DNA from: Desulfobulbus propionicus DSM 2032
GTDB lineage: Bacteria > Desulfobacterota > Desulfobulbia > Desulfobulbales > Desulfobulbaceae
Reading direction: 5' to 3'
DNA length: 32,000 nt
NCBI RefSeq assembly: GCF_000186885.1
Contig: NC_014972.1
Location: 3,630,001-3,662,000, forward strand
The position numbers and the translations under genes were made by a program. This document shows positions 4,624-25,290 of this stretch, in pieces (within the stretch, counting starts at the first letter, position 1; each line of letters begins with the position of its first letter). A model generated the notes under the pieces. The model made no database searches. It saw only the letters and a list, made by a program, of their open reading frames with translations, and had not been told where the DNA came from.

Positions 4624-4662
4624 CCTTTGCATTGCACCTGTGCGGACCCACTCAGTCGGGCA

Positions 4663-5127
4663 TCACGCATCCTTGTTCTGGCGCTGGGCGTTGTCGTAGA
4701 GGGCGATGAAGTTGATCGGCTCCATCAAGAAGGGCATGAAGCCGCCGTCCACCGCGGCCTGACAGACGATCTGGCGGGTGAAGGGGAAGAGCATCAGCGG
4801 GCAGTCGACCGCCAGAACGCGCTCGTGGTGCTCCTGGGGAATGTTCTTCATCAGGAACACGGCCGCGTGCTCGATCTCGACGATGAACATTACCGAATCC
4901 TCGTTGTTCTTATCCAATACCTTGGCGGTGATGGCGATGGAAACCTCGCTGTGGTCGTCGTCGAGCTTCTGGTTCTTCAGCTGCAGGTTGAAGTCCACCT
5001 TAGGATCCTGATTGCGCACCAGGAAGACCTTGGGGGCATTGGGGCTCTCAAAGGAAAAATCCTTGATGTACATCTTCTGCATGCGAAAAACCGGGATGTC
5101 CTGCTGTTCGGGGGTCTGGTCTGCCAT
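4663..5127 (-). CDS. secB: protein-export chaperone SecB
   Basis: 154 aa. The N-terminal FRMQKMYIKDFSFESPNAPKVF and later AVDCPLMLFPFTRQIV...GGFMPFLMEPINFIALY match the SecB family pattern. Confidence 0.9.
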   Translation of the reverse strand: MADQTPEQQDIPVFRMQKMYIKDFSFESPNAPKVFLVRNQDPKVDFNLQLKNQKLDDDHSEVSIAITAKVLDKNNEDSVMFIVEIEHAAVFLMKNIPQEHHERVLAVDCPLMLFPFTRQIVCQAAVDGGFMPFLMEPINFIALYDNAQRQNKDA

Positions 5128-5246
5128 GATCTGTCCTTGTGGGATGAAGTCAATAAAAACCGGCGTCAGGAGTCTGCGCCGGTCAGATGGTCCGTTCGGG
5201 GGTCATCGTACCAGGGGTTGGACCGGGAACACAATCAAAAAACCGG

Positions 5247-8084
<2,838 letters not shown>

Positions 8085-10417: not shown

Positions 10418-11629
10418 CTATTCGTGGCTGATCGACATCGCACTGCCGGAAGTCGCGTCTCCTTGATTCGGCGGCAACCATCGAATGCCCAGTAGCAGCA
10501 ATCCCGCCACAAGCGTTGCGGCGGCAAGGGTGAGAAAGAGGACCGTGTAGCCGAATCGGTCCAGCAGCAACCCGCCGATACAGGGACCGAGAAAAAACCC
10601 GCCCTGCATCATCACAACGAGCAGGTTCTGGTTCATGGCCCGATGGGCCGGCGGGGAAAGGTCGAACATGGCGGCCGCCTGCAGGGGCATGGCGATTCCC
10701 CAGCCCAAGCCGGAAAATCCCGCCAGGAGCGCCAACCCCGGACTGGAGGCGCACAGAGGGAGCAGCGCGTAACAGACACTCGCCAGCACCAACCCAGCGG
10801 CACAGAGCTGTACCTTGTGGCAGCGGTCGAACAACCAGCTGCCCAACAACCGGACCGCGATCATCACCACTGTGGCCGTGGAGAAAAAGAGGCTGGTGTT
10901 GACAATACCCCGGCTGAGACCGAACTGTTTGAAATAAAAGAACAGCGTGGCGTAACCGGAAAAAAAGAGCAAGGTCGAGAGCAGCAGCGTCACCACGGCC
11001 GGCGAGCGCAGGCTGGCGGCCATGCCAGCCAATCCCGGGGGAGACGGTTTCTCTCCCCTTTCTGCGTGCCGGGCGGCCGGGAGCAGGAGCAGCAGTGGCG
11101 GCAGCAGCGCCACCACGGCGGCCGCGTGGAGCACGGCGGGGAATGACGCGGCCTGGATGGCGCGCAGATCAAACAGAAAGGGGATGAGTGCATACGGGAG
11201 CAAGCGAACCAGCGAAACCCAGCCAAAGGCCCGGCCGCTCATTGCCGGGGGAATACAGCCGACCAGCAGGGCCATCAGGGCCGACAGCATACAGATGAAC
11301 CCGCCACCTTGGAACAGCCGGGCCACGACCAGCAACGGCACCGAGGTGACCTGGGACAGCAGCGCGAGTGCCATCGACAGCAGCAGCGAACCGACGACGA
11401 GCCAGCGACGGGCGTTGGCAGAGTGGACCACGGGCGCGATCAATGGCTGGATGACCAAGGCGGCCAGGGCATCGGCACTGAGGATGAAGCCCGCGCTTGC
11501 CGGGCTCAGGCCCAGTAACTGGAGATAGCCGGAAAAGGCGAAAAACAGGGCGGCAATGGCCGTGACCAGGGCAAATTGGAGATTGATCGCCACAAACCCC
11601 GGAGAGATGAGCCCACGCCCCTCAGTCAC
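10418..11629 (-). CDS. MFS transporter
   Basis: 403 aa, almost entirely hydrophobic helices (roughly 12), with an MFS-like loop after TM2. GTG start at 11629 overlaps the stop of the upstream FAD-subunit gene by 8 nt. It is the last gene of the operon. Confidence 0.8.
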   Translation of the reverse strand: MTEGRGLISPGFVAINLQFALVTAIAALFFAFSGYLQLLGLSPASAGFILSADALAALVIQPLIAPVVHSANARRWLVVGSLLLSMALALLSQVTSVPLLVVARLFQGGGFICMLSALMALLVGCIPPAMSGRAFGWVSLVRLLPYALIPFLFDLRAIQAASFPAVLHAAAVVALLPPLLLLLPAARHAERGEKPSPPGLAGMAASLRSPAVVTLLLSTLLFFSGYATLFFYFKQFGLSRGIVNTSLFFSTATVVMIAVRLLGSWLFDRCHKVQLCAAGLVLASVCYALLPLCASSPGLALLAGFSGLGWGIAMPLQAAAMFDLSPPAHRAMNQNLLVVMMQGGFFLGPCIGGLLLDRFGYTVLFLTLAAATLVAGLLLLGIRWLPPNQGDATSGSAMSISHE

Positions 11630-12470
11630 CCAAGGCCTCCACGAAGCGAACCGCTAGGTTGGCCGCCACCAGGCGGCGATATTCGGCCGAGGCGCGGAGA
11701 TCGCTGAGGGGCGAAACCCCTTGATGTACCGTTTGATGGATATGGCCGAGGGGTGCGCGGTCAACCCGAACACCAACCAGTTCCGCCTCCAACCCAGGCA
11801 GCCGGACCACCGTCGGCCCGACGCTGCCCCAGGCCATGCGAATATCGGCAATGACGCCTTCGTCGTCAAGTCGGGCCAGACCGGCAAAGCTGGTCACCGA
11901 GATGGCATGGGCCCTTCGACGACCGACCTTGACAAACCGCTCACGGGAAAAAGGCGGTGCCTTGGGCAGCAGGATGCGGGTGATGAGTTCCCCCTGTTGC
12001 CGTGCCGTCCGTCCGGGACCGTGGAGAAAGGCATCGAGCGGCAGCACCCGCCTGCCTGCGGGCGAGGCCAACTCGATTCGGGCATCATGCAGACACAGCG
12101 GTGGCAAGGAATCGCCCGCAGGCGAGGCGGTGGCGATATTGCCGCCGATGGTGGCCATGTTCCTGACGGCTGGGCCGCCGATGGTTCGGGCGGCTTGGGC
12201 CACCAGCGGCGCATGCCGCTCCACCAGCGGATCGGCGAGGATGCGGGCAAAGGGCGTGGCCGCGCCGATGGCCAGGAAAGATGAGTGCTCGGCCACGCCC
12301 TGCAGTTGCTCGATGCGGGCCAGGGAAAGCAAGGGAGGAGCGCTGCCCGGGTCCCTGGCGCGCAATCGGACCAAAAGGTCGGTGCCGCCCGCCAGCGGCA
12401 ACGCATCGGGATGCTCGGCCAGCAGATCCAGGGCCTGGTCCAGGCAGGTGGGGATCAGGACCGCGCTCAT
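11622..12470 (-). CDS. molybdenum hydroxylase FAD-binding (medium) subunit, CoxM/XdhB-like
   Basis: Track ORF trimmed to ATG 12470, which forms an ATGA overlap with the upstream stop. FAD-binding-5 motifs are present: LPLAGGTDLLVRLR and GGPAVRNMATIGGNIATASPAGD. The C-terminal CO-dehydrogenase-flavoprotein-like part contains DLRASAEYRRLVA. Confidence 0.85.
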   Translation of the reverse strand: MSAVLIPTCLDQALDLLAEHPDALPLAGGTDLLVRLRARDPGSAPPLLSLARIEQLQGVAEHSSFLAIGAATPFARILADPLVERHAPLVAQAARTIGGPAVRNMATIGGNIATASPAGDSLPPLCLHDARIELASPAGRRVLPLDAFLHGPGRTARQQGELITRILLPKAPPFSRERFVKVGRRRAHAISVTSFAGLARLDDEGVIADIRMAWGSVGPTVVRLPGLEAELVGVRVDRAPLGHIHQTVHQGVSPLSDLRASAEYRRLVAANLAVRFVEALGD

Positions 12471-12946
12471 CGTTCCTCCCGGCAGCAGCGAATATCGCGG
12501 GCCGCTCGTTCGACCGCGTCGACGATTTTGGTGTAGCCGGTGCAACGGCAGAGGTTGCCGGACAATCCTTCACGAATGCAGTCACGATCCGGTGCGTTCT
12601 CCTGCCGGAGCAGGGCCAGGGCCGTCAGCTCCATGCCGGGAATGCAGAAGCCGCACTGAACCGCCCCCTCCTCGACAAAAGCCTGCTGGAGCAGCGCTCC
12701 TTCGGTCGTCGCCGCCACCCCTTCCACGGTGGTGACCCGGCAGCCTTCCAGCTGGGCCGCCACCATCAGGCAGGAGAGCCGCGTCTCACCGTTGACCAGG
12801 ACCGTGCAGGCACCGCACTCGCCGGTGCCGCAGCCTTCCTTGGTGCCGGTCATGCCCATATCCTCGCGTAGCAGATCCACCACCCGCCGATCAGGGGGGA
12901 CATCGATTGCAACCGGTGTCTCGTTCAGCGCAAACCGTACCTTCAT
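12467..12946 (-). CDS. molybdenum hydroxylase [2Fe-2S] (small) subunit, CoxS-like
   Basis: Plant-type ferredoxin cluster CGTGECGACTV...SC and second cluster QCGFCIPG...CRCTGY. 159 aa. ATGA overlaps occur at both ends. Confidence 0.9.
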   Translation of the reverse strand: MKVRFALNETPVAIDVPPDRRVVDLLREDMGMTGTKEGCGTGECGACTVLVNGETRLSCLMVAAQLEGCRVTTVEGVAATTEGALLQQAFVEEGAVQCGFCIPGMELTALALLRQENAPDRDCIREGLSGNLCRCTGYTKIVDAVERAARDIRCCREER

Positions 12947-15234
12947 GCCTTTTCCTCCAAAGCCAACAGCACCCGTTCCGGGGTCAGCGGTGCCTGATGC
13001 AGACGAATACCGCAGGCCTGGTCAACCGCGTTGGCCACCGCCGGCAGCGGGCCATTCATCGCCACCTCGCCCACCCCTTTGAGTCCAAACGGCCCGGTGG
13101 CCTCGGCTCCCTCAAGACGGCACGAATGGATGTCCGGCAGGTCCACAGCCGTGGGGATCAGGTAGGTGGCCAGGCTATCACTGTGCACCCTGCCCTCGTG
13201 CCGCTCCACCTCCTCCATCAGGGCATAGCCGATCCCCTGGGCCACCCCGCCCTGGATCTGCTGATCAAGCATGGTCGGATTGAGGACCGTGCCGCCGTCG
13301 GTGACGGCCACATAGTCGCACACCCGGATCAGGCCGGTCAACAGGTCGACCTCGATGCGGGCCAGATGCGCGCCGTAGGCAAAGATCACATGGGGGAAGC
13401 CGATGAAGAACCCCTTGGCCGTGTCCGGTGGCTGCTCGCACACCGGGGCCACGAACTGGCTGATGCATACCCGGTCCTCCTGGGGCATGAAGGCTGCCAG
13501 CTGCGCGAATTCCACCTGGCGACCCGTGGGCGGGTGGATCACCTTGCCGGGCACCAGGCGGAGATCGCGATCATCGTCGAGGAACAACAGCAGACCGGCG
13601 CGGTTAATCAGGCGGGCTCGCAGCTCCTCGCAGGCCTTGATCAGGGCATTGCCGAAGGTGTAGGTGGTGCGGCCCGCCGAGGCCGAACCCGAGGGATAGG
13701 CGGTGCGGGTGTCCGGCTGGCGCAATTCCATCTGGCCCGCATCCTGGGAGAGGATATGGCCGGCCATCTGCACAAAGGCGCTGCCATTGCCCTGGCCCAT
13801 GTCGGTGACCGCGTTGTGGACCACGATTTTCCCCTCCGCATTCAACTCCACCTTGGCAATGGCGGCATCGCGCACCTTGCCGCCATAACCGGCGGCATTG
13901 AAGACCGCCGCCAGGCCAAGGCCGCGCCGGGTCTGGGGTGGGGCCTGCGCCTTCCATGCCTGCCGCTCCTGCCACAGGGGGTGCTCACGCAGCCTCTCCA
14001 GGCAGCCAACCATGCCGGTCGAGGTGGTGAGCCGCAGGCCGGCGCAGTTGTCATCCCCCTCGACCAGGGCATTGCGCAGGCGCAGCTCCAGGGGATCCAT
14101 GCCGAGCTCTTGTGCCAGCAGGTCCATCATCGATTCCATGGCAAAGGCCACCTGGCAGACGCCAAAGGCCCGCATGGCCCCGGCCACCGGGTTGTTGGTG
14201 TAGACGCAGCGCCCCTCGATGAGCACATGGGGGATGCGGTAGGGGCCACCGGCATGCTCCATGCCCAGCTCCATCACCTCGCCGCCCAGATGGGCATAGG
14301 CGCCGGTGTCGTAGAGCAGGGAACAGTGCAGGGCGATGAGCGTGCCGTCCCGGTCCGCGCCCAGGCGGTAGCGCAGCCGGCAGGGGTGGCGCTTATAGCC
14401 GGCCACCATGCTCTCTTCCCGCTCCCAATGCATCTTCACCGGCCGGCCCTCGGCGTGCAGCGCGGCCAGGGCCAGCAGACACTGCACCGTGGCCCCGTCC
14501 TTGCCGCCGAACCCACCGCCCAAACAGGGAGCGACGATATGGAGGCGGTCGTAAGGAATGCCAAGGGCGGTGCCGACCTCGAACCGGTCGCGAAAGGGTG
14601 ATTGGCTCGACACGGTCATGGTGAGGGTGCCATCCTTCTCCAACCGGGCCACGCCGTTTTCCGTCTCCAGATAGATGTGCGCCTGCATGGGGGTGGAAAA
14701 TTCCCCTGCCACCACCACCTCGCAACGGGACAGGGCACGGTCGGCCTCGCCGGTGCGAATCTCGGCGGCCAGCAGGATGTTGCCGGCGTGCCCCTCGTGC
14801 AACAGGGGCGCCCCCTCGGTCAGAGCCGCTTCCGGATCAAACACCGCGGGCAGTGGTTCGATCTCCACCCGCACCCGGGCAATGGCCTGGCGCAGGGCCG
14901 TTCGGCTCTCGGCCAGGACCAGGGCCACGGCATCGCCGGCATGGCGCACCCGCTCGTTCACCAGCACCGGGGTGTCGCGATGGATGATGCCGTGGCGGTT
15001 GGGACCCGATACATCGGCGGCGGTCAGTACCTTGTAGACGCCGGAAACGGCCAGGGCCGCCTCGGTCGCCACCGAGAGCAACCGGCCGCTGGCGATGCCG
15101 GCCCGCACCACCCCGGCCCACAACAGGTTCTCCGGATAGAGGTCGGCGGCATAGGGTTCGATGCCGGCCGTCTTGGCCGCGGCATCGCAGCGCACCTCCG
15201 CGCGGCCCACCTGCAACGGTTCCCTGGCGGTCAT
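12943..15234 (-). CDS. molybdopterin-binding (large) subunit of a xanthine dehydrogenase/aldehyde oxidoreductase-family hydroxylase
   Basis: Track ORF 12943..15543, trimmed to ATG 15234 (MTAREPLQVGR...), which overlaps the aminotransferase stop as ATGA. Family motifs include HGIIHRDTPVL, MQAHIYLETENG, QSPFRDR, GGGFGGKDG and DMGQGNGSAF. About 763 aa. Confidence 0.9.
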   Translation of the reverse strand: MTAREPLQVGRAEVRCDAAAKTAGIEPYAADLYPENLLWAGVVRAGIASGRLLSVATEAALAVSGVYKVLTAADVSGPNRHGIIHRDTPVLVNERVRHAGDAVALVLAESRTALRQAIARVRVEIEPLPAVFDPEAALTEGAPLLHEGHAGNILLAAEIRTGEADRALSRCEVVVAGEFSTPMQAHIYLETENGVARLEKDGTLTMTVSSQSPFRDRFEVGTALGIPYDRLHIVAPCLGGGFGGKDGATVQCLLALAALHAEGRPVKMHWEREESMVAGYKRHPCRLRYRLGADRDGTLIALHCSLLYDTGAYAHLGGEVMELGMEHAGGPYRIPHVLIEGRCVYTNNPVAGAMRAFGVCQVAFAMESMMDLLAQELGMDPLELRLRNALVEGDDNCAGLRLTTSTGMVGCLERLREHPLWQERQAWKAQAPPQTRRGLGLAAVFNAAGYGGKVRDAAIAKVELNAEGKIVVHNAVTDMGQGNGSAFVQMAGHILSQDAGQMELRQPDTRTAYPSGSASAGRTTYTFGNALIKACEELRARLINRAGLLLFLDDDRDLRLVPGKVIHPPTGRQVEFAQLAAFMPQEDRVCISQFVAPVCEQPPDTAKGFFIGFPHVIFAYGAHLARIEVDLLTGLIRVCDYVAVTDGGTVLNPTMLDQQIQGGVAQGIGYALMEEVERHEGRVHSDSLATYLIPTAVDLPDIHSCRLEGAEATGPFGLKGVGEVAMNGPLPAVANAVDQACGIRLHQAPLTPERVLLALEEKA

Positions 15235-16361
15235 GCGGCAACTCCTTGTTTGTTCCGGATCATATCCACCTCCTCGGCCAGCGCCTCGACAAACCGTTCC
15301 ATCACTTCTCGCTCCCGCAGGGTGACCCGGATCCAGCCGGGAAAGCGGAACCCGGTCATGGTGCGAACCATCATGCCCCGCCGCATCAGCCGCCGGTACA
15401 TGAGCATGTCGTTGATCGGCGTGCGGATCATCAGGTAATTGCCCTCGCCGCCGACCGTTTCCAGCCCCAGATCCCGGCAGGCATCGCCCACCATGGCCTT
15501 GCCCTGCCGCACCAGGGCCCGGGTGGCGGCAATGTGCTCGCAATCGTCCTCCAGGGCGGCCAGGGCCGCCTGCTGGGCCTGGACATTGACCGAGTAGGCC
15601 ACGCTGGTGCGCCGCACCACCTCGACCACCGCCTCGGTGCCCGCCAGATAACCGACCCGCAATCCCGCCAGTCCATACATCTTGGAAAAGGTGCGGAAGA
15701 CCACCAGATTGGGGAATCGCTCCATCAGGCCGACGGTGTCGGGATAGTCCGGATCCTCCACATACTCCCGGTAGGCCTCGTCCACCACCACGATCCGGTC
15801 GTCACCAACCTGTTCGAGGAAATCGACCAGCACCTGGCGGGACCAGGAACTGCCGGTGGGGTTGTTGGGGTTGCAGACAAAGAGGATCTTGGTGTGGCGG
15901 TCGATGCGGTCGAGCATGGCCTGCGGGTCAAAGGCATAATCATGCAGCGGCGTCAACCGGGCCTCAATGCCGGAGAACTCGGCCACCCACTCGTAGACCG
16001 CAAAGGTCTTGTCGGCGGTGATGATGTTGTCGCCCGGCTGGCAGAAGGCCTTGATCACCGAGGAGATCACCTCGCAGGAGCCGTTGCCGACCAGAATCCG
16101 GTCCGCAACCAGGCCCAGGCGTACTCCCAGCGCCTGGCGGAGGTCATGGCAGTCGCCGCTGGGATAGACAGCGGCACGCTCAGGGGGAAAGGCGGCAATG
16201 ACCCTGGCGGCGGCCGGCGGCGGCCCCAGCGGATTTTCGTTGTTGTTGAGCCGGTGTAGCACCGGGGCACCGTATTCGCGCATCAGCAGATGATCCGGCT
16301 TGCTGGGCACATAGGCCTGAAAGCCACGCACATACTCGGGGATCAGGGCCTCAAGATTCAT
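15231..16361 (-). CDS. PLP-dependent aminotransferase, HisC (histidinol-phosphate/aromatic) family
   Basis: NNNENPLGPP, FVCNPNNPTG, VVVDEAYREY, and the PLP-lysine box RTFSKMYGLAGLRVGY. 376 aa. The substrate cannot be told from sequence. Confidence 0.85.
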   Translation of the reverse strand: MNLEALIPEYVRGFQAYVPSKPDHLLMREYGAPVLHRLNNNENPLGPPPAAARVIAAFPPERAAVYPSGDCHDLRQALGVRLGLVADRILVGNGSCEVISSVIKAFCQPGDNIITADKTFAVYEWVAEFSGIEARLTPLHDYAFDPQAMLDRIDRHTKILFVCNPNNPTGSSWSRQVLVDFLEQVGDDRIVVVDEAYREYVEDPDYPDTVGLMERFPNLVVFRTFSKMYGLAGLRVGYLAGTEAVVEVVRRTSVAYSVNVQAQQAALAALEDDCEHIAATRALVRQGKAMVGDACRDLGLETVGGEGNYLMIRTPINDMLMYRRLMRRGMMVRTMTGFRFPGWIRVTLREREVMERFVEALAEEVDMIRNKQGVAA

Positions 16362-17680
16362 GCGCGGGCCCCTGCTGCCGGATGGTCATAGATCACCAGG
16401 TCGCCCTGACCGCCATCCGGAATCACCAGACGAGGCACAAAGCCGGTCTCGGCCAGGGATGCGGCAAAGGCGGTGTCCTCGCTTCGGCCGGTGTTGAGTT
16501 CCACCAGGAAGTTGGCGATCCCCTCGCCCCGCAGCAACTCCAGGTGGGCGGCCAGGTTGGCGGTCATATCCCGGCCGGCGCACAGGGGACGGATCACCGC
16601 CAGCGATCGACCATATTCGAGTTCCACCGCCAGTACCGAACTGTCGCGCAACCGGGCGGGATCGCCCGATGACGGGCGGATCTGCCGGGGCAGGCAGAGG
16701 CGGTCGTACTGGGCGCCGAGGAAGGTGGCCAGCGGTTCGGCGCAGTAGACCGTGCCGCCGCTCTCTTCCTTGAGCTGGCGATAGTAGCAGGTGCAGCGGT
16801 TGATTCCTCCGGGCCCTCGCAGGGGGAGCTCGCCGAGGAAATCAAAGAAGCGCTCGGAGCCGGCGAAGGCTCCCTGCCGCCGTACCAGTCCCCGGAAGGC
16901 GGAACGGGAGATGCGGCCGACAGCCTCGTCGAGCAGCAGACGCAGCCCCTGGTCGCCCGGATCGTCACCGAACAGATAGGGGCCGTAGAGTTCCAGGCAG
17001 GCATCGGTCAGCGGCCGCCACAGCACGCCGCCCCGGATCCAGTTGCCCTGCTCGACCAGGAGCGCGCTCACATGGCCCACGGCCAGCATGGCCGCCGCCA
17101 TGTCCGGCCGGGCGAGAAAGCCGGGGAGGAATTCGCTCCCGGCGGTCACCGCCATGGCGGCAAAGTGACGCAGGTCCTCCCGGGAGGGATCGAGCAGGCG
17201 CAGCGGTCCCGCCAGGTCGGCCGGTGGCAACGGCACGGGAGCGGCCTGCGGATAGTCGCGGTCGCGGGTCATGCGCAGCGCCACCTGCTCGTCGGCGCCG
17301 AACTCGAGCCGCAGGCTGGAGACGCTGCGGGCGGCGAGCATCGGACCGAGCATCGCCAGCGCGTCCTCGTTGTCGAGGCTGCACCTCCAGGTCAGATTGA
17401 GGGCGCGCAGATCGGGATTGGCCACACGAAAGATCAGGGAGAGTGCCAGGCGATAGCCCTGGTCCTCCAGCTCGATCTCCACCGCCGAACCCTTGGCGGC
17501 CTGCTGGACATAGAAGGAGAACAGTTCCTCGGTGGCCAGCACCAGGCCGCCGGCCGCCGGACCGGTGGCGCCGAATCCCTGCGCGCCCTTGTCGACCAGG
17601 GTCATGACCAAGGGCAGGAACGGCGGGCTGAAGGGAAGACGCGCGGCGATGCTGTGCGGCCGGATTGACGACTGTTTCAT
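16358..17680 (-). CDS. hypothetical 440-aa protein with an N-terminal degenerate RsbW/HATPase-like region and a C-terminal region resembling the neighbouring GNAT-like protein
   Basis: ATG 17680 has AGGGGA 8 nt upstream, and the stop overlaps the aminotransferase start (ATGA). Coding is supported by its operon position and by residue patterns shared by eye with ORFs 21153..21563 and 17715..18764. I recognise no named family. Confidence 0.7.
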   Translation of the reverse strand: MKQSSIRPHSIAARLPFSPPFLPLVMTLVDKGAQGFGATGPAAGGLVLATEELFSFYVQQAAKGSAVEIELEDQGYRLALSLIFRVANPDLRALNLTWRCSLDNEDALAMLGPMLAARSVSSLRLEFGADEQVALRMTRDRDYPQAAPVPLPPADLAGPLRLLDPSREDLRHFAAMAVTAGSEFLPGFLARPDMAAAMLAVGHVSALLVEQGNWIRGGVLWRPLTDACLELYGPYLFGDDPGDQGLRLLLDEAVGRISRSAFRGLVRRQGAFAGSERFFDFLGELPLRGPGGINRCTCYYRQLKEESGGTVYCAEPLATFLGAQYDRLCLPRQIRPSSGDPARLRDSSVLAVELEYGRSLAVIRPLCAGRDMTANLAAHLELLRGEGIANFLVELNTGRSEDTAFAASLAETGFVPRLVIPDGGQGDLVIYDHPAAGARA

Positions 17681-17714: not shown

Positions 17715-18764
17715 TCATGCCTGACTCCGCAACCATTCGTTCCTGATCAGCTCCACCAGGGCGCGGCCGCGGTCGGAATGGATCTTCATCCCCGCGAAAT
17801 TCGGGTCCACCAGATGCTTCTGCAGCAGCAGCCCATCAGTGCCGAACCAGATCGGCAGCAGACCGCCGAGCGCATAGCCCTGGCCGCGCAGCTGCTCGAC
17901 CACCCCGCCGGCCCAGGGCTGACCGAGATCGACAAAGCATTGGATCAGGGCATAGTTATCGGCCCGCAACCGCTGCTCCAGGGCGCGCAACCGCCCGGGC
18001 AGATCCGCGCCCGGCGCGGTTACCGTGCAGCGGGCCACCCCGGCGAAGTCGAAGCGACCCACCTCGACGGCCGCCTCACCCGCTGGAATGCCGCTATCGG
18101 CCTCCACGATCTCGCGGTCCAGGGTGAACCCCTCCATGATGAAGCGCAGCTGGTCCCGATAGGGCCTGGGCAAAAACAGGGGTTTGCGCTGATCGACATC
18201 CACCCGGAAATAGACCAGACAGCCCACCCGGCCCAGGCCACTCCACTCGGTTTCGTACGCCTCGGCGGGCATCAGGGCCGGTTCCACCGCAGTTTCAAGA
18301 CCCTTGGCATGCTGTGTCAGTTTCTGGGTGATGGTGTGGTTGCATACTGCCTCACCAAAAATACCGTCAATCCCGTCCTTGCCCACCAGCCGCATCAGCA
18401 ACTGGGTTGCACGGAAAAAAGCCATGGTCGAGCGATAACTCGGCAGGGTCAGCCCCACGCCGTACTCGTAGAGCCGAGGGTTGGGCGGCGAGCTGCGATA
18501 CAAGGCGGCATGGGCCACCACCTCACCGGAAACCGTGCGCGCCACTGTGCTGCGGATGGTGCCTCGGCGGTTTTCCTCGGCCAGACGTTCGGGAATGTAG
18601 TAGGTGTCAATCGGATAGCCGTCACCGTAGACGGCATAAAAGAGCCGGGCCACGCCGGTGCCGTCGGACGGCTCGAAAAAGTGGGCCGCATACGCCTCGC
18701 CCTCGGGAACCACATGCGGCGTACTGGCCAGGAACTGCAGCGCCTCCTTTCTGTCCATGGTCAC
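17715..18764 (-). CDS. GNAT-like acyltransferase-family protein (two-domain, about 349 aa)
   Basis: The N-terminal half (GVARLFYAVYGDGYPIDTYYIPERLAEENRRGTIRSTVARTVSGEVVAHAALYR...EAVCNHTITQK) matches a widespread GNAT-family pattern recalled from memory. The start is GTG 18764 (GTGA overlap with the ACP stop) or ATG 18758. Confidence 0.65.
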   Translation of the reverse strand: MTMDRKEALQFLASTPHVVPEGEAYAAHFFEPSDGTGVARLFYAVYGDGYPIDTYYIPERLAEENRRGTIRSTVARTVSGEVVAHAALYRSSPPNPRLYEYGVGLTLPSYRSTMAFFRATQLLMRLVGKDGIDGIFGEAVCNHTITQKLTQHAKGLETAVEPALMPAEAYETEWSGLGRVGCLVYFRVDVDQRKPLFLPRPYRDQLRFIMEGFTLDREIVEADSGIPAGEAAVEVGRFDFAGVARCTVTAPGADLPGRLRALEQRLRADNYALIQCFVDLGQPWAGGVVEQLRGQGYALGGLLPIWFGTDGLLLQKHLVDPNFAGMKIHSDRGRALVELIRNEWLRSQA

Positions 18765-18997
18765 ACCTTGGCCTTGATGCAGTGCTCGAAGTCGGCCAGG
18801 GTCTTGAGCCGCAGGGCCTCGGCATCCGAGATCCTGACCCCGTAGCGCTCTTCCACCGCCAGGGCAAAGGCCGGGTAATCGATGGAATCGAATCCCTGTT
18901 CGCTCAGCAGCACATTCGGATCGAGACGGGACACCATCTCCTCGTCCAGGTCGATGGCGAGCATCAACTGCTTCAAGTCAGCGATCGTGATGGCCAT
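18761..18997 (-). CDS. acyl/aryl carrier protein
   Basis: 78 aa with a four-helix ACP-like pattern and a phosphopantetheine-attachment serine in GFDSIDY. GAGGAG SD lies upstream of ATG 18997. It sits directly downstream of the adenylating enzyme. Confidence 0.85.
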   Translation of the reverse strand: MAITIADLKQLMLAIDLDEEMVSRLDPNVLLSEQGFDSIDYPAFALAVEERYGVRISDAEALRLKTLADFEHCIKAKV

Positions 18998-19027: not shown

Positions 19028-20533
19028 TCATTGCTTTAGTTTAAACCGCTGCACCTTGCCGGTGGGGGTGCGGGGCAGGTCATCGACAAACCGGTACACC
19101 AGGGGACACATATACTCGGGCAGACGAACGGCCAGGAAGGCGCGCAATGCCTTTTCCAGGGGCCGGCCGGGTTCGTGGCCCGGCCGCAGGATCAGGTGGG
19201 CGGCCGGACGCTCCAACCCACCAAGCCGATAGGCAGCCACCGCGCAGTCCGAGACCACCGGGTGGGTGCGCAACACCTCCTCGACCTGGAGCGGCGAGAT
19301 CCATTGGCCGCCGACCTTGAGCATGTCGTCGCTGCGGCCACGGTGCCAGTAGCGGCCCTCCTGTTCGACTGCCACATCGCCGGTACGGATGAACCCGTCG
19401 GCCAGCATGGTCTCGGCGGTCTTGTCCGGCCGGTTCCAATACCGGGGCGCCGCCCCCGGTCCGCGCACCAGCAGATGGCCGGTAACGCCCGAGGCCACCG
19501 GATTGCCGTCGTCATCCACCAGCCGCACCTCGTAGCCCGGCACCGGCCGGCCTGTGGAACCGGGGACCAGATCGCCCGGCCGGTTGGAGAGGAAGATGTG
19601 GGTCATCTCGGTGGAGCCGATGCCGTCCAGCACCTCCAGGCCGGTGAGCCGCTGCCACTCCTCGACCATGGCGGCAGGCAGGGCCTCCCCGGCGGAGACG
19701 CACAGCCGCATCGGCAGGGACAGGTGGTCCTCGTTGACACTGCGGATGAGCTGACCGTAGACCGTGGGCACCGAGAAGAACAGCGTTGGCCGATACCGCG
19801 CCATCAACGCCAGGAGCTGATCGGGCAGGGGATTGTCGGGATGGAGTACCGCCGTGGCGCCGACATATAACGGGAAGGCCAAGCTGTTGCCCAGGCCGTA
19901 GGCAAAATAGAGTTTGCTGGCCGACAGCACCACGTCGTCCTCGCCCATGCCCAACACCTGCACCGCATAGCGTTCGGCCGCCGCCAGCAGGTCGCCATGG
20001 CGATGGGGCACCCCCTTGGGCCGGCCGGTGGAGCCCGAGGTATAGAGCATGTAGGCCAGATCGTCCGGCCCGACCGCGGCGGCTGCCACCGGGACGCTGG
20101 GCCTCTCGGCCACGGCCTCGGCGAGCCGCTCGCCACAAACCAGGCAGTCCGTTCTGGCGCGGGGAAATCCCTCGATCGCCGCCACAGATGGCGAGACCAG
20201 GGCCAGTCGGGCCTCGCTGTCGCTGAGCAGGAAGTCATAGGTCTCGGCATTCAAGGCAGTGCCGACCGGGACCGCGACCGCACCGATCAGGGTGGTCCCC
20301 AGAAAGGCGGCGACGAACACCGGCGAATCCACCAGGACGATCAGCACCCGGTCGCCCGGCCCTATGCCCTTGGCGTGCAACAGGCGGGCAAAACCATAGG
20401 CGCCCGCAGCCAGCTGCCGATAGCTGACCGCCTGGCCTGCGCAGAGATAGGCAGTTTTGTCGGGATGGCGCGCGAGATTGGGCAGGAGCAGGTGCGCTGT
20501 CAGGTTGCGGTTATTGGCTGTACATCCGTTCAT
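19028..20533 (-). CDS. AMP-forming adenylating enzyme, benzoate-CoA ligase family
   Basis: AMP-binding core YTSGSTGRPKGVPHRH. Family-typical SKLYFAYGLGNSLAFPL and DGIGSTEMTHIFLSNR. C-terminal RSDDMLKVGGQWISP and PRTPTGKVQRFKL. The start overlaps the cupin stop (ATGA). Confidence 0.9.
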   Translation of the reverse strand: MNGCTANNRNLTAHLLLPNLARHPDKTAYLCAGQAVSYRQLAAGAYGFARLLHAKGIGPGDRVLIVLVDSPVFVAAFLGTTLIGAVAVPVGTALNAETYDFLLSDSEARLALVSPSVAAIEGFPRARTDCLVCGERLAEAVAERPSVPVAAAAVGPDDLAYMLYTSGSTGRPKGVPHRHGDLLAAAERYAVQVLGMGEDDVVLSASKLYFAYGLGNSLAFPLYVGATAVLHPDNPLPDQLLALMARYRPTLFFSVPTVYGQLIRSVNEDHLSLPMRLCVSAGEALPAAMVEEWQRLTGLEVLDGIGSTEMTHIFLSNRPGDLVPGSTGRPVPGYEVRLVDDDGNPVASGVTGHLLVRGPGAAPRYWNRPDKTAETMLADGFIRTGDVAVEQEGRYWHRGRSDDMLKVGGQWISPLQVEEVLRTHPVVSDCAVAAYRLGGLERPAAHLILRPGHEPGRPLEKALRAFLAVRLPEYMCPLVYRFVDDLPRTPTGKVQRFKLKQ

Positions 20534-21039
20534 TTGCGCTCCCTGTCCGTTGCGTGCCCGGCCGTCTGCCGAGCGGCCTTGTCCGTGGGTTCCTGCTTGA
20601 TCACGTTTGGTGTCCCTTCAGCCCCAAGATAGAACACCGCCAGCTTGACCGGCTCGGTGCCGCTGTTGGTGCCATTATGCAGGACATCGACCACCTCGAT
20701 CACCGCCTCGCCGGCACGATACGCGGTGGAGCGGCCATCTTCCAGCTCGACGGCCAGGGTGCCAGCAATCACATACGCATAGACGGGAACCGGATGCTTG
20801 TGCCAGCCGGTGCTGGCGCCAGGCGCAAGCTCCACGGTCATGGCGGTCACCTCGGCCTTGTCGGTGCAGGGATAGACGATCTTGTGTCCATTGGCGGTGG
20901 TAGTGGTTTTCTGCACGACATGGGCGGTCACTCCGCCACGGTAGCCGCTGTCGGCAAACACCGGCCCTGCCGTGAGCAGCAGGACCAACAGAAAGAAAAC
21001 GATGGGTTGCTGCCATCGTCGGCAATACACGCGCCTCAT
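20530..21039 (-). CDS. cupin-domain protein with a predicted N-terminal signal peptide
   Basis: Track ORF trimmed to ATG 21039, which has GGAGGAG upstream. Signal-like N-terminus: MRRVYCRRWQQPIVFFLLVLLLTAGPVFA/DS. Cupin barrel motif: GASTGWHKHPVPVYAYVIAGTL...GEAVIEVVDVLHNG. Confidence 0.75.
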   Translation of the reverse strand: MRRVYCRRWQQPIVFFLLVLLLTAGPVFADSGYRGGVTAHVVQKTTTTANGHKIVYPCTDKAEVTAMTVELAPGASTGWHKHPVPVYAYVIAGTLAVELEDGRSTAYRAGEAVIEVVDVLHNGTNSGTEPVKLAVFYLGAEGTPNVIKQEPTDKAARQTAGHATDRERK

Positions 21040-21152
21040 GCACGCACTCCTCCGGTTGAATGAACGGATATACACGCTTGTTTGCCAGCCAAAGCCCGGC
21101 CGGTTCTCGTGGGTCCCCTGGTTGTCCGGTGGGGAGGGCATCTCCGCAGCAC

Positions 21153-21563
21153 TCAGCCACGGTTGAAGGTGATGCGCAGGATGTTGCGCCCCCCCTCCCG
21201 GTGATATCTGACGCTGTCCGCGAATGTGCGGATGAAATGCACTCCCAGGCCGCCCACGGCCCGCTCGCTGATGTTGGAAGCACGATCGGGTTCCGGCAGC
21301 GAAAGCAGATCAAAGGGCACACCCGAATCGACGATTTCGAGGACAAAGGCGTCGCCGTCGCCGTCGCAGGCCAGTTCGGCTTCTCCTTGCCCGTCCGGAT
21401 AGGCGTGATGGCAGATATTGACAAAGGCCTCTTCCAGGGCCAGGGTCAGGCCAAACCGTTTGTTGGGCCCCAGGCCGAAATGGGTGGCCTTGTCCTCCAC
21501 GAACGCAATCGCTTCGGCAAGGCGCTCCACCCGGGCCGCGACACGAAAAGTGTCAACAGACAT
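21153..21563 (-). CDS. anti-sigma-factor-type serine kinase (RsbW/SpoIIAB-like, HATPase_c_2)
   Basis: 136 aa. N box is LEEAFVNICHHAY, G1-like motif is EIVDSGVPFD, and G2 is VGGLGVHFIR. It lies 6 nt downstream of the STAS gene. Confidence 0.85.
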   Translation of the reverse strand: MSVDTFRVAARVERLAEAIAFVEDKATHFGLGPNKRFGLTLALEEAFVNICHHAYPDGQGEAELACDGDGDAFVLEIVDSGVPFDLLSLPEPDRASNISERAVGGLGVHFIRTFADSVRYHREGGRNILRITFNRG

Positions 21564-21569: not shown

Positions 21570-21905
21570 TTATTCAACAGCGGCCACGGCGCCGGCAACG
21601 GAATCGTGCATCGGGAAAATAGTGCTGAACCCGGAAATATCGAACACCTCCCTGACCGACCCGGTGACATTGGCACAACGGACCTGACCTCCCCTCGACT
21701 TGCTCCGTTTGGCGGTAGCAAGCAGGGCCCGCAGCCCGGCACTGCTAATGTAGTCGAGCCGTTCGCAATCAACGATCAGTACGCACGATTCGGCGGCAAG
21801 CAGTTCGTTGACCTTCTTTTCGAATTCCGGCGCGGTGACCGCGTCCAATTTGCCGGTGAGGGCGAGAACCAGAGTACTGCCTTCCGTGCTCATCTGTATG
21901 TCCAT
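21570..21905 (-). CDS. STAS-domain anti-sigma-factor antagonist (RsbV/SpoIIAA-like)
   Basis: ATG 21905 with GAGGAA 7 nt upstream is preferred over the GTG at 21926. The phosphorylatable-serine motif is DYISSAGLRALL, and the C-terminus has VREVFDISGF. Confidence 0.85.
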   Translation of the reverse strand: MDIQMSTEGSTLVLALTGKLDAVTAPEFEKKVNELLAAESCVLIVDCERLDYISSAGLRALLATAKRSKSRGGQVRCANVTGSVREVFDISGFSTIFPMHDSVAGAVAAVE

Positions 21906-21948
21906 GGTGTTCCTCGTTTCTTTCACGCTGCATCCGGAGAGGCCCGGA

Positions 21949-23883
21949 TCACTGGGTTGTGTTTGTACCTATCCCTCGATAGGTAATGGCGAGCATGGTC
22001 ACGTCGTCGGACTGCGGCGCCCCTCCGGCGTGCCGGGCGACATCCGCCCGGATGCCATGAATGATCTCCGCCAGTTCCCGATCCGCCCTTTCCTGCAGGG
22101 CCGCCAGCAACCGCGATTCGCCGTAGGGTTCCTCTTGTCCGTTTTTCGCTTCGGTCACCCCGTCGGTATACAGAAACAGGACCTCCCCCGGCAACAGGGT
22201 GATCCGCTCGCTTGCATACACCGCCTCCTCCATGGGACCAAGGACAAATCCCGCCCGGACCGACAGGAGCCGCGCCGCTCCTCCGCTGATCAGCACCGGC
22301 GGATTGTGGCCGGCATTGGCGAAACGGACCTCGCCGCTGGTCGTGTCGAGGATGGCGCAGAACACGGTGGTGAACATGCAGCTGTCGTTGTCCGCGGCCA
22401 GGATGGTGTTGACCCGGGACAGGATCCGGTCCGGCTCGCCAAGCATCTGCCCCTCGGCCTTGAGCAGGGTCTTGACCACCATCATGTAGAGGGCGGCCGG
22501 GACCCCCTTGTCGGCCACGTCGGCGATCAAAAAACAGAGGTTGTCCTGGTCGACGAAGAAAAAGTCGTAGAAATCGCCACCCACCTCCTTTGCCGGATCC
22601 ATAGCGGCGAAGACATCGAACTCGGGCCGGTCGGGAAAGGCGGGAAACAGGCGGGGCAGCAGGCTGGCCTGGATGTCGGTGGCCATCTTGAGTTCGCTCT
22701 GGATGCGCTCCTTGGCGGCAGTGGTTTCGGTCAGGTTGCGGATATATTCTTTGAGGGCCGTGGTCATGGCGGCAAAGGCCAGGGTCAGCTTGCCCACCTC
22801 GTCGCGCACCCGTACGGGCGGCAAGTTGGTGTCAAAGTGGCCTGCGGCGATCCCCTCCGTTGCCTTGGCCAAGGCACCAAGCGGGGCGGTGACGGTGCGG
22901 GCGATGAAAAAGACCATGATGGTCAACAAGCCAATCCCTCCCAGGGCAATACCGGTCACGGTAAAGGTGAGACGATGGACATCCGCATACATCTCCGCTT
23001 TGGGAAAAACGACCGCCAAGGTCCAGCCGGTGGAGGGAATCGGGGCGTAGTACATCCAGGTGTCGACGTTGCGCAGGTTGGTATAGGCGACCAATCCCGA
23101 TTCGCCGCGCGCCATTTTCCTGCCGATCTCGCGGAGTTCCGGACTGTTGCGCGATTCGGCGAGACTGAAGATGGTTTCGTTCATGATCAAATTGCGGTCA
23201 GGATGGGTCAGGAAGGTGCCGTTGCGGGAGAGGAGGAAACTGTAGCCCGTGTCCAGCACCCGGATGGAGGCCACCAGCCTGGTCAGCCACTCCAGGGAAA
23301 CATCGGCCACCACAACGCCGCGCACCGCTTTCTCCTTGCCCTGGTCCATGAAAATCGGGACCGAGCAGCTGGTCATCAGGATCTCGCCGCTGGTCTCGTC
23401 GTCATAGGGCTCGCTCCACGCCTGTTCCCGCAGCTCCTTGGCAATCTGATACCAATCCTGCTGCAGATACTGGAAATTCTCCTCTGGAGCGAAGAGCAGC
23501 TGGTCGCCTTGCCTATAAAAATAGGGAACCACCGGACAGGGCGGGTTGAAGGCGGGATCGGGTTCAAAGGCCACCCCAAGGCCATGGATCTCACGGTTCT
23601 CGATCAGGGTCCGCCGCAGAAGGAGCGACAATGACTGGTCGGAGGTCACCCCTGTCTCCACGGAGCGCCCCACGCCTTCGGCGACCTTGCCAATGGCGCG
23701 CAGGGTGGCCTCCATCCTGTTCACCGAGGCCAACACCAGTTTCTCGGCATTGTTCTCCACTTCTCGTTCCAGGGCCACTCGGGAACGGTGATAAAAATAG
23801 CTGATGGCCACGGAAAAAATCAGGATGGTGCAGACCGAGACCACCAGCGTGAAGGTGGAGGCGATGGTTCTAGCGGCGAACAT
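21949..23883 (-). CDS. membrane sensor phosphatase: Cache-like periplasmic domain, HAMP, PP2C/SpoIIE (RsbU-like)
   Basis: TM1 is TIASTFTLVVSVCTILIFSVAISYF. A periplasmic region of about 270 aa follows, then TM2 (FTVTGIALGGIGLLTIMVFFIA) and a HAMP domain (PLGALAKATEGIAAGHFD...DEVGKLTLAFAAM). PP2C motifs are GGDFYDFF, FLIADVADKGVPAAL, LYTDGVTEA and QSDDVTML. Start taken as ATG 23883, a 14-nt overlap with the upstream gene; ATG 23919 is an alternative. Confidence 0.85.
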   Translation of the reverse strand: MFAARTIASTFTLVVSVCTILIFSVAISYFYHRSRVALEREVENNAEKLVLASVNRMEATLRAIGKVAEGVGRSVETGVTSDQSLSLLLRRTLIENREIHGLGVAFEPDPAFNPPCPVVPYFYRQGDQLLFAPEENFQYLQQDWYQIAKELREQAWSEPYDDETSGEILMTSCSVPIFMDQGKEKAVRGVVVADVSLEWLTRLVASIRVLDTGYSFLLSRNGTFLTHPDRNLIMNETIFSLAESRNSPELREIGRKMARGESGLVAYTNLRNVDTWMYYAPIPSTGWTLAVVFPKAEMYADVHRLTFTVTGIALGGIGLLTIMVFFIARTVTAPLGALAKATEGIAAGHFDTNLPPVRVRDEVGKLTLAFAAMTTALKEYIRNLTETTAAKERIQSELKMATDIQASLLPRLFPAFPDRPEFDVFAAMDPAKEVGGDFYDFFFVDQDNLCFLIADVADKGVPAALYMMVVKTLLKAEGQMLGEPDRILSRVNTILAADNDSCMFTTVFCAILDTTSGEVRFANAGHNPPVLISGGAARLLSVRAGFVLGPMEEAVYASERITLLPGEVLFLYTDGVTEAKNGQEEPYGESRLLAALQERADRELAEIIHGIRADVARHAGGAPQSDDVTMLAITYRGIGTNTTQ

Positions 23884-24871
23884 CGGCCCCCCCCATGAAG
23901 GTTTCGTAATCGGGAACATCCTTGATGACCCCGTGGTCACGCAAAATGGCCGCGGCTGCCTGGTATCCCGGCGGCTGCAGGCGGCCAGGTGGTTCACCGT
24001 CGCTTGCCGGAGCCATCAAGTCGCGCATCCGCTCCAGCATCCATCGCTGGTGTGACCGGCTTGCAGGTACCTTGGCCTGCCGCATGATACGGAGGGTGAC
24101 GTCCAGGGTTTCTTCCGGAGCAGCAAAGGCGTATCGCCACCCTTCCAAGGATGCCCTGGCAAAGGCCTTGGCCAAGGCCGGATCCTGGCGATAGCGATGC
24201 TCCAAGGCATATAAGCCGTCCTCGGGAAAGGTGATGCCGTGCTCATGGAGAGAAAAAACCCGCAGTTCTTCCGGGTTGATCCCGGCATTGAGCATGGTGT
24301 GGTATTCATTGTACCACATGGCCGAGGCCGCATCGAGACCGCCCCGGAGAAACAGGTTGACGGTATAGGCCTGGGGGATCCGCCGTACCTGAAGGTGATA
24401 CCGGTCAAGGAAGGCCAGAATCGGCAGGGACAGTTCGCCGTCCCACACCCCGATTTTTTTTCCTTGAAGGTCCTTGGGCGTTCGGATGCCGCTTGCCGTG
24501 CGGACCACAAGCAGCAGGGAGGAACGCGGAACGATCTGCGCCAGGTTGACGAGTTTGAGCCCGGCATCATGCTGCTGCAGGGCGGTCGACAACCAGAGCA
24601 CGGCGAAATCGGCCTCACCGTTGGTCAGCGATTGTATCGCCGAGCGGCCCGGCCCCCCCGTGAGAATGGTCAGATCGATACCATGGCGGGCATAAATGCC
24701 CTTTTCCAGGGCCATATAATAACCGGCAAACTGAGCCTGCGGGCTCCACAAAGGCATGAGCCGCGCCTTTTTCAGGCCTGTTTCCGCAGAGGCTGGGGAA
24801 ACAAGGCCGGCGAACACGGCCAACCACACCATCAGGCACACGCAAACCGTGCGTCGGCGCGCTTTTCCCAT
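23870..24871 (-). CDS. periplasmic substrate-binding protein, NMT1/THI5 (TauA/SsuA-like) family
   Basis: Track ORF trimmed to ATG 24871. Signal peptide is MGKARRRTVCVCLMVWLAVFAGLVSPASA. Family-like WSPQAQFAGYYMALEKGIYARHGIDLTILTGG and NGEADFAV. No ABC permease or ATPase gene is nearby. Confidence 0.8.
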   Translation of the reverse strand: MGKARRRTVCVCLMVWLAVFAGLVSPASAETGLKKARLMPLWSPQAQFAGYYMALEKGIYARHGIDLTILTGGPGRSAIQSLTNGEADFAVLWLSTALQQHDAGLKLVNLAQIVPRSSLLLVVRTASGIRTPKDLQGKKIGVWDGELSLPILAFLDRYHLQVRRIPQAYTVNLFLRGGLDAASAMWYNEYHTMLNAGINPEELRVFSLHEHGITFPEDGLYALEHRYRQDPALAKAFARASLEGWRYAFAAPEETLDVTLRIMRQAKVPASRSHQRWMLERMRDLMAPASDGEPPGRLQPPGYQAAAAILRDHGVIKDVPDYETFMGGADVRR

Positions 24872-25290
24872 GGTTGTTTCCTGTATTGGCGAGATCACCG
24901 CTGCTGTCTGAATCGACACATCGTCCCTCGACGGTGGAGAAAGAGCTGCCGCAAGACCATTCCATCGGTACAACCGCTTGACGGCAAAACATGAGGTCCT
25001 TGCCCCTCCGTCATGCCGCCTGGTTCTGCCGCGCAGGCAGCGATGAGCAGGCACATGCTTCAAAGGGACCAACACGATCGATTGTAGCTTAATCACCAAA
25101 ATGAAATCAAAAAAAATTCCACTTTCCCGATCCTTTTGTACAATGAACGCATGCAGGACCTGTCCATGCCGACCGACGGGCACAATTTTTCTTCCCCGGC
25201 GTGCGACTTCTCGCTCTTCATCGAACTAACCAAAAGCCGTTCGCCCCCCTCTTGCTGGCCGGAACGCGAACAAGGAACTTGTTATAGGGC

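Follow-up and report, generated by a model that had tools for sequence, protein, structure and literature searches.

The 32,000-nt stretch of Desulfobulbus propionicus DSM 2032 analysed here (NC_014972.1, positions 3,630,001 to 3,662,000; referred to as the window) carries a row of tightly packed genes, all on the minus strand, several adjacent members of which overlap by 4 nt. This study concerns one of them, p440 (16358..17680), a 440-codon open reading frame (ORF). Its product consists of an apparently dead RsbW/SpoIIAB-type GHKL domain (residues 1-145; 17246..17680), a degenerate GNAT-like domain (residues ~158-303; 16772..17209) and a C-terminal alpha/beta domain (residues ~309-435; 16376..16756) that is common to p440 and its neighbour p349. 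The same row encodes a partner-switching module, of which the N-terminal domain of p440 is proposed here as a candidate receiver.

The module lies upstream of p440 and comprises an NMT1/SsuA-like periplasmic solute-binding protein (23870..25183; PF09084, E = 3e-38), a dCache-HAMP-PP2C (SpoIIE) membrane sensor phosphatase recognised by Pfam (21949..23997), a single-domain STAS protein of the anti-sigma antagonist type (21570..21926; PF01740, E = 1e-22) and a stand-alone RsbW-type serine kinase with intact N, G1 and G2 boxes (21153..21563; PF13581, E = 1e-28). The start codons of the first two genes are uncertain. The phospho-serine motif DYISSAGLR of the STAS protein is kept in its co-located orthologues, and the EEAFVN, DSGVPFD and GGLGVHFIR motifs of RsbW are kept in 14 co-located orthologues. 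The nearest NCBIfam model for the phosphatase is SiaA, with a score far below the model cut-off. No gene for a sigma-70-family or other sigma factor was found among the ORFs of the window.

Between the module and p440 are genes for a Cupin_2 protein (20530..21141; PF07883, E = 2.7e-13), an adenylate-forming ligase of the benzoate-CoA ligase family (19028..20533; PF00501 and PF13193; TIGR02262 at 460 bits, above cut-off), a 78-aa PP-binding carrier protein with a GFDSID motif (18761..18997; PF00550, E = 2.7e-7, above cut-off) and p349 (17715..18764), a stand-alone GNAT protein of 349 aa with a C-terminal domain, which has no Pfam match and was recognised through AlphaFold2 and Foldseek. The carrier-protein ORF is absent from the program-made ORF list; its stop codon overlaps the start of p349, and it is kept beside the ligase in eight related loci. 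Downstream of p440 follow a HisC-like class I/II aminotransferase (15231..16361; PF00155; TIGR01141 at 284 bits), the start of which overlaps the p440 stop by 4 nt, and, as annotated by Pfam, the large, 2Fe-2S and FAD subunits of a xanthine-dehydrogenase-family Mo hydroxylase together with an MFS transporter (10418..15240), the transporter (11629..10418) being the last gene of the row. Since the carrier-protein ORF lies between the ligase and p349, the benzoate-CoA-ligase-family enzyme probably loads the carrier protein, and the operon has the appearance of a small pathway for acyl transfer that depends on this carrier. Assignment of the Mo enzyme and the ligase to 4-hydroxybenzoyl-CoA reductase or xanthine dehydrogenase was rejected, all equivalog models being far below their cut-offs. 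Just outside the cluster, and apparently unrelated to it, a 510-aa polyphosphate kinase 2 with two PPK2 stretches is encoded at 25983..27515 (minus strand; PF03976, E = 4e-141).

A preliminary description of the locus had proposed that p440 begins with a degenerate RsbW-like domain paralogous to the neighbouring kinase, from a by-eye alignment of residues 34-54 (QGFGATGPAAGGLVLATEELF; nt 17519-17581) with THFGLGPNKRFGLTLALEEAF of RsbW, in which 9 of 21 residues were counted as identical. These coordinates, those of the gene and the hand count agree with ours, and the blocks aligned by eye further downstream match the computed alignment except for a 2-residue gap before EDQGY. BLASTP of p440 against RsbW or against p349 gave no match, because pairwise tools of this kind are too weak for the p440-RsbW similarity. 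A Smith-Waterman alignment of p440 residues 1-150 with the RsbW of the window scored 53, while shuffled sequences scored 27.4 +/- 4.6 and reached 53 in 2 of 2000 cases; it pairs p440 residues 4-141 with RsbW residues 1-135, that is, the entire domain. When profiles were compared by hhalign, the N-terminal domain of the p440 family matched 17 co-located RsbW proteins with a probability of 96.1% (E = 3e-9; residues 11-82 against 4-77) in the same register as that chosen by eye, with an extension to 8-142 against 1-136 at low mact.

Searches with hidden Markov models (HMMs) depend on which members of the family are considered. p440 itself matched nothing in Pfam or NCBIfam, PF13581 being missed even at E <= 1; 0 of 167 p440 homologues had a Pfam match; and the p440-family HMM found nothing at E <= 10 among PDB sequences. 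Among close homologues PF13581 (HATPase_c_2) was matched by 3 of 42, with a best E of 0.082, and among distant family representatives by 28 of 72 (E <= 0.01; best E = 3.6e-6). The profile search that had been suggested as a check thus gives no match for p440 itself and matches for part of its distant relatives, some of which are already named 'anti-sigma regulatory factor' by the Joint Genome Institute (JGI). An HMM built from the co-located RsbW proteins matched the whole N-terminal domain of relatives only 28-33% identical to p440, at E values from 1e-8 to 1e-10, so that the similarity is conserved in orthologues down to 28% identity. The family as a whole comprises 419 clusters at 50% identity (E <= 1e-3).

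The AlphaFold2 model of p440, built with 42 homologues, has a predicted local distance difference test (pLDDT) value of 88 and a predicted template-modelling score (pTM) of 0.85. In the model, residues 9-140 are arranged as beta-alpha-alpha-beta-beta-alpha-alpha-beta-beta, the order of the Bergerat alpha/beta sandwich, and the domain extends over residues ~8-145. The best PDB matches found by Foldseek are RsbW (6m37/6m36), SpoIIAB (1til/1l0o/1th8/1tid) and Mycobacterium tuberculosis UsfX (8ih8/8jzt), with E values of 1e-7 to 1e-5 and template-modelling (TM) scores on the target of 0.69-0.87; the top 15 matches are all RsbW, SpoIIAB or UsfX. The p440 domain thus has the same fold and topology as these PF13581 proteins (TM 0.78-0.87 to 6m37, 1til and 8ih8), and it is closer to the co-located RsbW than to HATPase_c_2 in general. 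Fold and homology together make it practically certain that the first ~145 residues of p440 are a paralogue of the co-encoded RsbW in which the GHKL fold is kept.

In contrast to the fold, the ATP-binding motifs are lost. They were compared in a joint alignment of p440 relatives, co-located RsbW proteins and the RsbW-GNAT proteins described below, and columns were counted over the 72 distant representatives. The N-box remnant of p440 is EELFSF (residues 51-56; 17513..17530), in which Glu51 and Glu52 are retained and the Mg-ATP-binding Asn is replaced by Phe. At this last position (residue 56) the representatives have Tyr in 44, His in 12, Phe in 11 and Asn in one, so that the Asn is wanting in 71 of the 72; Glu51 is found in 66 and Glu52 in 68 of them, and the family pattern reads EE[LIV]F, one variable residue, then F/Y/H. 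The G1 box is lost through a 4-residue deletion that takes out DxGxG in p440 relatives and leaves VANPD (residues 86-90; 17411..17425) opposite DSGVPFD of RsbW. What remains of the G2 box and helix alpha3 is MLGPMLAAR (residues 110-118; 17327..17353), aligned with GGLGVHFIR of RsbW; here GGLG has become MLGP or, more generally, xxGL, and the family pattern is reduced to xxGLxxAxR, with Gly112 in 64, Ala116 in 69 and Arg118 in 68 representatives. The preliminary description had likewise read Phe for the N-box Asn and a loss of the G-box glycines, which the counts and the alignment bear out, save that one glycine of G2 (Gly112) is kept. To our knowledge, the N-box Asn, G1 and G2 are needed in every characterised GHKL kinase of the Bergerat fold, and p440 possesses neither the N-box Asn nor G1 DxGxG nor G2 GxxGxG. 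Because all three motifs are lost, the N-terminal domain is very likely a pseudo-kinase without kinase activity, as judged from its sequence.

Other parts of the domain are well conserved. The stretch alpha1-loop-alpha2 is retained as FLPL..F..K.A..FG.....GL.LA.EE.F, and Asn95, in the former lid region, is invariant in the p440 family. In RsbW, helices alpha1-alpha3 form the STAS-binding face, and in the RsbV-RsbW crystal structures Glu49 of Bacillus subtilis RsbW contacts Ser56, the phospho-acceptor of RsbV (PMC7340262). By a chained alignment, this Glu49 corresponds to Glu52 of p440. The kept Glu52 is in line with a STAS-docking face, but since this residue is also part of the catalytic N-box, it is no more than an indication. 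Mapping of further RsbV-contact residues onto p440 (Arg23, Asp42, Lys44 and Tyr118, beyond Glu49/Ser48) revealed no consistent conservation and was dropped.

The conserved stretch also allows p440 to be seen as a partner of the kinase itself. RsbW and SpoIIAB are obligate dimers through beta1 and alpha1 (PMC7340262), and the strongest similarity between p440 and RsbW lies precisely in beta1-alpha1-alpha2 (residues 11-82). It might be, then, that p440 pairs with the live RsbW via beta1/alpha1 in the place of a sigma factor, being sequestered or modulated by the kinase, and that unphosphorylated STAS releases p440 from it. The canonical logic, moreover, needs a target for RsbW, and no other was found encoded in the window. 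Two loci described below fit poorly with such a heterodimer, which we consider quite unlikely.

How constant is the association between p440 and the module? Loci were collected from species-representative genomes (33) and by exact-protein look-up (9 further distinct ones; loci are designated by L numbers), and the proteins of the window, together with HMMs derived from these, served as queries against their ORFs. Informative loci were those that showed the module and those that lacked it over at least 7-10 kb on each side. The NMT1/PP2C/STAS/RsbW module, or most of it, adjoins the p440 operon in 19 of 26 informative loci (73%), so that the co-occurrence of the p440 and STAS genes that the preliminary description had put forward as a check was indeed found. 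It stands upstream in the window and in L005, L007, L010, L016, L024, L025, L029, L030, L032, L034 and L041, and downstream in L002, L027, L028, L031, L042 and L044. The linked loci cover Desulfobulbus, Geobacter/Pelobacter, Rhodoferax, Thauera aromatica, Hyphomicrobiales and relatives of 28-33% identity. In five of them (L029, L030, L032, L034 and L041) the last module gene, in the order STAS-RsbW or PP2C-STAS, immediately precedes p440. The NMT1 gene adjoins the phosphatase in most loci, and the aminotransferase follows p440 in every locus. A sigma-factor gene was found beside the module in none of the Pfam-annotated loci, the sole sigma-like matches nearby being weak Sigma70_r4_2 matches on GerE-type regulators in L039 and L043, both of which are module-less; nor did any sigma factor or DNA-binding regulator travel with the module in the loci examined. 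From this association, a functional tie between module and operon appears likely.

Several of the surveyed loci contain further features of the operon. In L033 a divergent gene upstream of p440 (1395-5408, minus strand) encodes a 1338-aa fusion of an AMP-binding ligase, a p349-like GNAT and an aromatic amino acid ammonia-lyase (PF00221, E = 1e-141), which hints that histidine or an aromatic amino acid is the source of the pathway substrate. L008 (7810-9969) and L006 (1777-3876) each have, immediately upstream of p440, a 700-720-aa ORF for an ATP-grasp plus SAM-methyltransferase protein. A STAS-ATP-grasp-methyltransferase fusion was considered for these two loci and rejected, as in L008 just the first ~40 residues are STAS-like, of the type seen at the N-terminus of the local STAS family, and are probably a deletion remnant of the module or an ORF run-on. 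The p349 homologue of L042 (17967-19014), just upstream of STAS-NMT1-PP2C, is split as called into 205 + 129 aa by a frameshift or an assembly error.

Three loci bear on the part played by the kinase. In Thauera aromatica LG356 (L034, 6984-9491) an intact RsbW is fused to the C-terminus of dCache-HAMP-PP2C (PF13581, E = 3e-20), and STAS and then p440 directly follow. A kinase tethered in this way to a membrane phosphatase is a poor fit with a stoichiometric p440-RsbW heterodimer. Desulfobulbus elongatus DSM 2908 (L005, 3633-11320) encodes NMT1, PP2C, STAS, the ligase, the carrier protein, p349 and p440, yet has no stand-alone RsbW within 10 kb, which again argues against the heterodimer. As the STAS protein of L005 keeps DYISSAGLR, its kinase is either elsewhere or absent. 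In L013, too, STAS is present and no stand-alone RsbW could be detected in the locus. Loci of this kind would be accounted for if the N-terminal domain of p440 itself still phosphorylated STAS, or sensed ATP, ADP or an acyl-adenylate, and the conservation of Glu51/Glu52 and of the invariant lid Asn95 is in keeping with such an atypical kinase. Against it stand the Mg-binding Asn, gone in 71 of 72 representatives, the deleted DxGxG box that would bind adenine, and a G2 box reduced to one Gly; we regard an atypical kinase as very improbable.

The remainder of p440 was compared with p349. The AlphaFold2 model of p349 (pLDDT 87) has the complete GNAT topology, in the order beta1-alpha1-alpha2-beta2-4-alpha3-beta5-alpha4-beta6-7 and thus with helix alpha4, and matches dozens of GNAT acetyltransferases in Foldseek at E = 1e-8. 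The p440 model matches many GNATs at E = 1e-5, yet it has no alpha4: strands 264-267 and 279-288 follow each other without a helix between them, where p349 has helix 144-152. PF00583 has no match in p440, and the segment after beta4, FGDDPGDQG, is variable across the family and departs from the Q/RxxGxG/A pyrophosphate loop. The C-terminus of p440 aligns with residues 183-305 of p349 (hhalign probability 94.7%, E = 6e-8), GxD and P....GDL motifs being common to the two C-terminal domains. p349 is present in most p440 loci with enough flanking sequence, the four distant relatives looked up included.

A third architecture links these two proteins. L019 encodes a 497-aa protein in which HATPase_c_2 (E = 2e-12) is followed by Acetyltransf_1, and which belongs to a widespread family of ~495-aa proteins annotated PF13581 + PF00583 and named in the source databases 'ATP-binding protein' or 'anti-sigma regulatory factor/GNAT N-acetyltransferase', for example in Trichlorobacter ammonificans and Azospirillum sp. 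TSO22-1. The domain pair has been picked up by automatic annotation in relatives. Full-text literature searches returned no paper on HATPase_c_2/RsbW-GNAT fusions, and no experimental work was found on this family or on that of p440. p440 aligns with this RsbW-GNAT family over 405 columns, residues 11-435 against 10-459, in the identical domain order (hhalign probability 99.1%, E = 1.6e-18), and the p349 HMM spans the whole post-kinase part of the RsbW-GNAT proteins at E values of 1e-53 to 1e-71. Members occur in the same clusters as the p440 family (L019 and L002). Three related architectures are therefore to be distinguished, namely GNAT plus C-domain (p349), RsbW plus GNAT plus C-domain (~495 aa) and dead RsbW plus degenerate GNAT plus C-domain (p440), and p440, by sequence comparison, is a full-length divergent paralogue of the RsbW-GNAT fusion family. 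Two loci show the surroundings of the fusion genes: in L019 (520-7128) and L037 (2914-9482) genes for an AMP-binding protein, LuxE (acyl-protein synthetase) and LuxC plus AMP-binding (acyl-CoA reductase) precede an RsbW-GNAT gene with intact G1, and in L037, from Trichlorobacter ammonificans, a dCache-HAMP-PP2C gene lies 7 kb upstream.

Along this series the kinase motifs decay: RsbW has all boxes, the RsbW-GNAT proteins have G1 (DxGxPxD) intact in 29 of 29 and the N-box Asn in 12 of 29, and p440 has none. The GNAT half changes as well. RsbW-GNAT proteins retain the GNAT-site residues YGY, RxRG and EAVxxHPYTQK, while p440, which is ~55 residues shorter than members of that family, has lost YGY and RxRG and has a 19-residue gap opposite EAVTIHPYTQKGN of the EAVxxHPYTQK region in the hhalign alignment. 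In P0121 numbering, the invariant YGY, Y198, R252/G253, H284 and Q288 face -AG, A, G/D and the 19-residue gap in p440, and P200, G400, P452 and D458 are retained. The preliminary description had called p440 'the enzyme'. That label is doubtful, because alpha4 and the conserved GNAT-site residues, at the acyl-CoA site of the paralogues, are lost, and we prefer to speak of an acyltransferase-like, possibly regulatory, subunit. p349 is the likelier acyltransferase catalyst of the two, and p440 may, from its sequence, be a regulatory, non-catalytic paralogue or subunit beside it.

A second dead RsbW-like domain was found in the same clusters. In L007 (5573-6694), L024 (4923-6137) and L006 (3-746) a gene for an ABC-transporter ATPase lies directly upstream of STAS, in L007 and L024 after a fused multi-SBP_bac_3 plus permease gene. 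The C-terminal ~110 residues of the ATPase are RsbW-like (hhalign against RsbW: probability 93.7%, E = 2e-7) and have a dead N-box, VEELLQL. This suggests a second candidate pseudo-kinase receiver and a recurrent docking role for such domains.

Taken together, these observations best support a reading in which p440 receives the output of the neighbouring partner-switching module through its dead RsbW domain. A signal would be sensed by the dCache-HAMP-PP2C phosphatase together with the NMT1-like binding protein, and STAS would be dephosphorylated in response, to be phosphorylated again by the intact stand-alone RsbW. Unphosphorylated STAS would dock on the dead domain of p440, which could neither phosphorylate nor release it, and docking would modulate either the GNAT-like module of p440 itself or its presumably catalytic paralogue p349. 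The result would be a post-translational, sigma-free on/off switch of an acyl-transfer pathway comprising the ligase, carrier protein, p349, aminotransferase, Mo hydroxylase and MFS transporter. Since the family lies almost always beside a module lacking a sigma factor, the module probably controls the carrier-protein pathway, putatively through such docking. For the explanation as a whole, a sigma-free partner switch acting via the dead domain of p440, we judge the case evenly balanced; putative direct docking of STAS on the N-terminal domain is put at slightly short of even. More tentatively, and possible rather than probable, one STAS protein might dock on the dead RsbW domains of several effectors, p440 everywhere and the amino-acid-type ABC ATPase in some lineages, so that uptake and acyl transfer would be switched together, and the kinase and target-binding roles would be split between the live RsbW and its dead copies.

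A number of findings weigh against docking on p440. The module is wanting in seven loci with 7-10 kb on both flanks (L001, L019, L021, L033, L035, L036 and L043), in which the N-terminal domain is still conserved. In a mirror-tree analysis the partial correlation r between STAS and the p440 N-terminal domain was 0.28, compared with 0.35 for the FAD-subunit control and with 0.70 (STAS-RsbW) and 0.47 (STAS-PP2C) for known partners. No STAS or PP2C gene was found within 8 kb of the RsbW-GNAT gene in three of the four members looked up (Azospirillum, Dehalococcoidales and L040), so the domain can exist in the family without a linked partner switch. As p440 always travels with the whole operon, the linkage to STAS is not attributable to p440 over the operon. 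Finally, the pTM of 0.85 suggests that, in the model, the N-terminal domain is packed against the rest of p440.

Some of these points can be read in favour of a different role, in which p440 inherited its RsbW-like domain as a part for structure, oligomerisation or small-ligand binding and does not bind STAS with it. The module would then control the operon by other means, such as a sigma factor or regulator encoded elsewhere, or another STAS target. The RsbW-GNAT family is widespread, three of its four looked-up members have no nearby STAS or PP2C, 7 of the 26 informative p440 loci are module-less and the mirror-tree signal does not exceed the control; in addition, the RsbW dimer elements alpha1 and beta1 (PMC7340262) fall in the best-conserved stretch of the domain. 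Against such a role, the association with the module in 73% of informative loci, which holds for several gene orders and for relatives of as little as 28% identity, is hard to account for unless the two are functionally tied. In the loci examined, moreover, the module was accompanied by neither a sigma factor nor a DNA-binding regulator. Such a role also sits uneasily with a domain whose nearest relative is the co-located RsbW, not generic HATPase_c_2, and with the occurrence of a second dead RsbW-like domain on an ABC ATPase in the same clusters. We consider such an inherited role without STAS binding rather unlikely.

If STAS does dock on p440, how does the system compare with those already described? 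With RsbW/SpoIIAB systems it shares detectable homology, the kept Glu of alpha2 and a gene row with STAS and PP2C; it differs from them in that the p440 domain does not stand alone but is joined to a GNAT-like module of ~290 residues, that the motifs are lost and that no sigma factor was found nearby. An N-terminal regulatory domain before a GNAT fold is also known from the mycobacterial cAMP-regulated protein acetyltransferase, in which a small-molecule-binding domain controls a catalytically intact GNAT. In p440, by contrast, the domain would be a putative protein-docking pseudo-kinase, and the GNAT-like part is degenerate. The closest working likeness would be SiaABCD of Pseudomonas aeruginosa. 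There the small phospho-switch protein SiaC is controlled by SiaA, a PP2C phosphatase, and SiaB, a kinase; when unphosphorylated, SiaC binds the diguanylate cyclase SiaD and thereby activates it, with no sigma factor involved (PMC7278518). The window phosphatase is nearest to the SiaA model, albeit below cut-off. Unlike p440, which as the putative target includes a dead version of the kinase, SiaD has no RsbW-like docking domain, and SiaABCD has cyclic di-GMP synthesis as its output, where that of the present system would be a GNAT/carrier-protein pathway. The suggestion that the output of this partner switch is a metabolic enzyme rather than a sigma factor fits in with the finding of no sigma factor near the module; such an output is not unprecedented, given SiaABCD. 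Other systems that use STAS/RsbW/PP2C logic for outputs other than a cognate sigma factor are SypA/SypE of Vibrio fischeri, BtrU/V/W of Bordetella and RbaV/W of Rhodobacter (PMC8256260), the STAS targets of which are unknown or are not pseudo-kinases; a GNAT-like protein takes part in none of these systems.

The locus raises a more general point about how these switches reach their targets. Partner switching is usually taught as a means to free a sigma factor. The exceptions are few, and in them the target is either unknown or, as for SiaABCD, an enzyme without a kinase-like docking site. The N-terminal domain of p440 is a candidate target that can be defined from sequence, since it would be a dead copy of the system's own kinase. 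The family to which it belongs is spread over anaerobic Proteobacteria and Desulfobacterota and falls into at least 400 clusters at 50% identity; the cultured strains Desulfobulbus elongatus DSM 2908 and Thauera aromatica LG356 are among its hosts. Both p349 and p440 represent GNAT-fold families without a Pfam model in a conserved pathway of ligase, carrier protein, aminotransferase and Mo hydroxylase. A route by which a STAS switch may act on a target other than a sigma factor, and the use of bacterial GHKL pseudo-kinases as receivers, are thereby opened to test.

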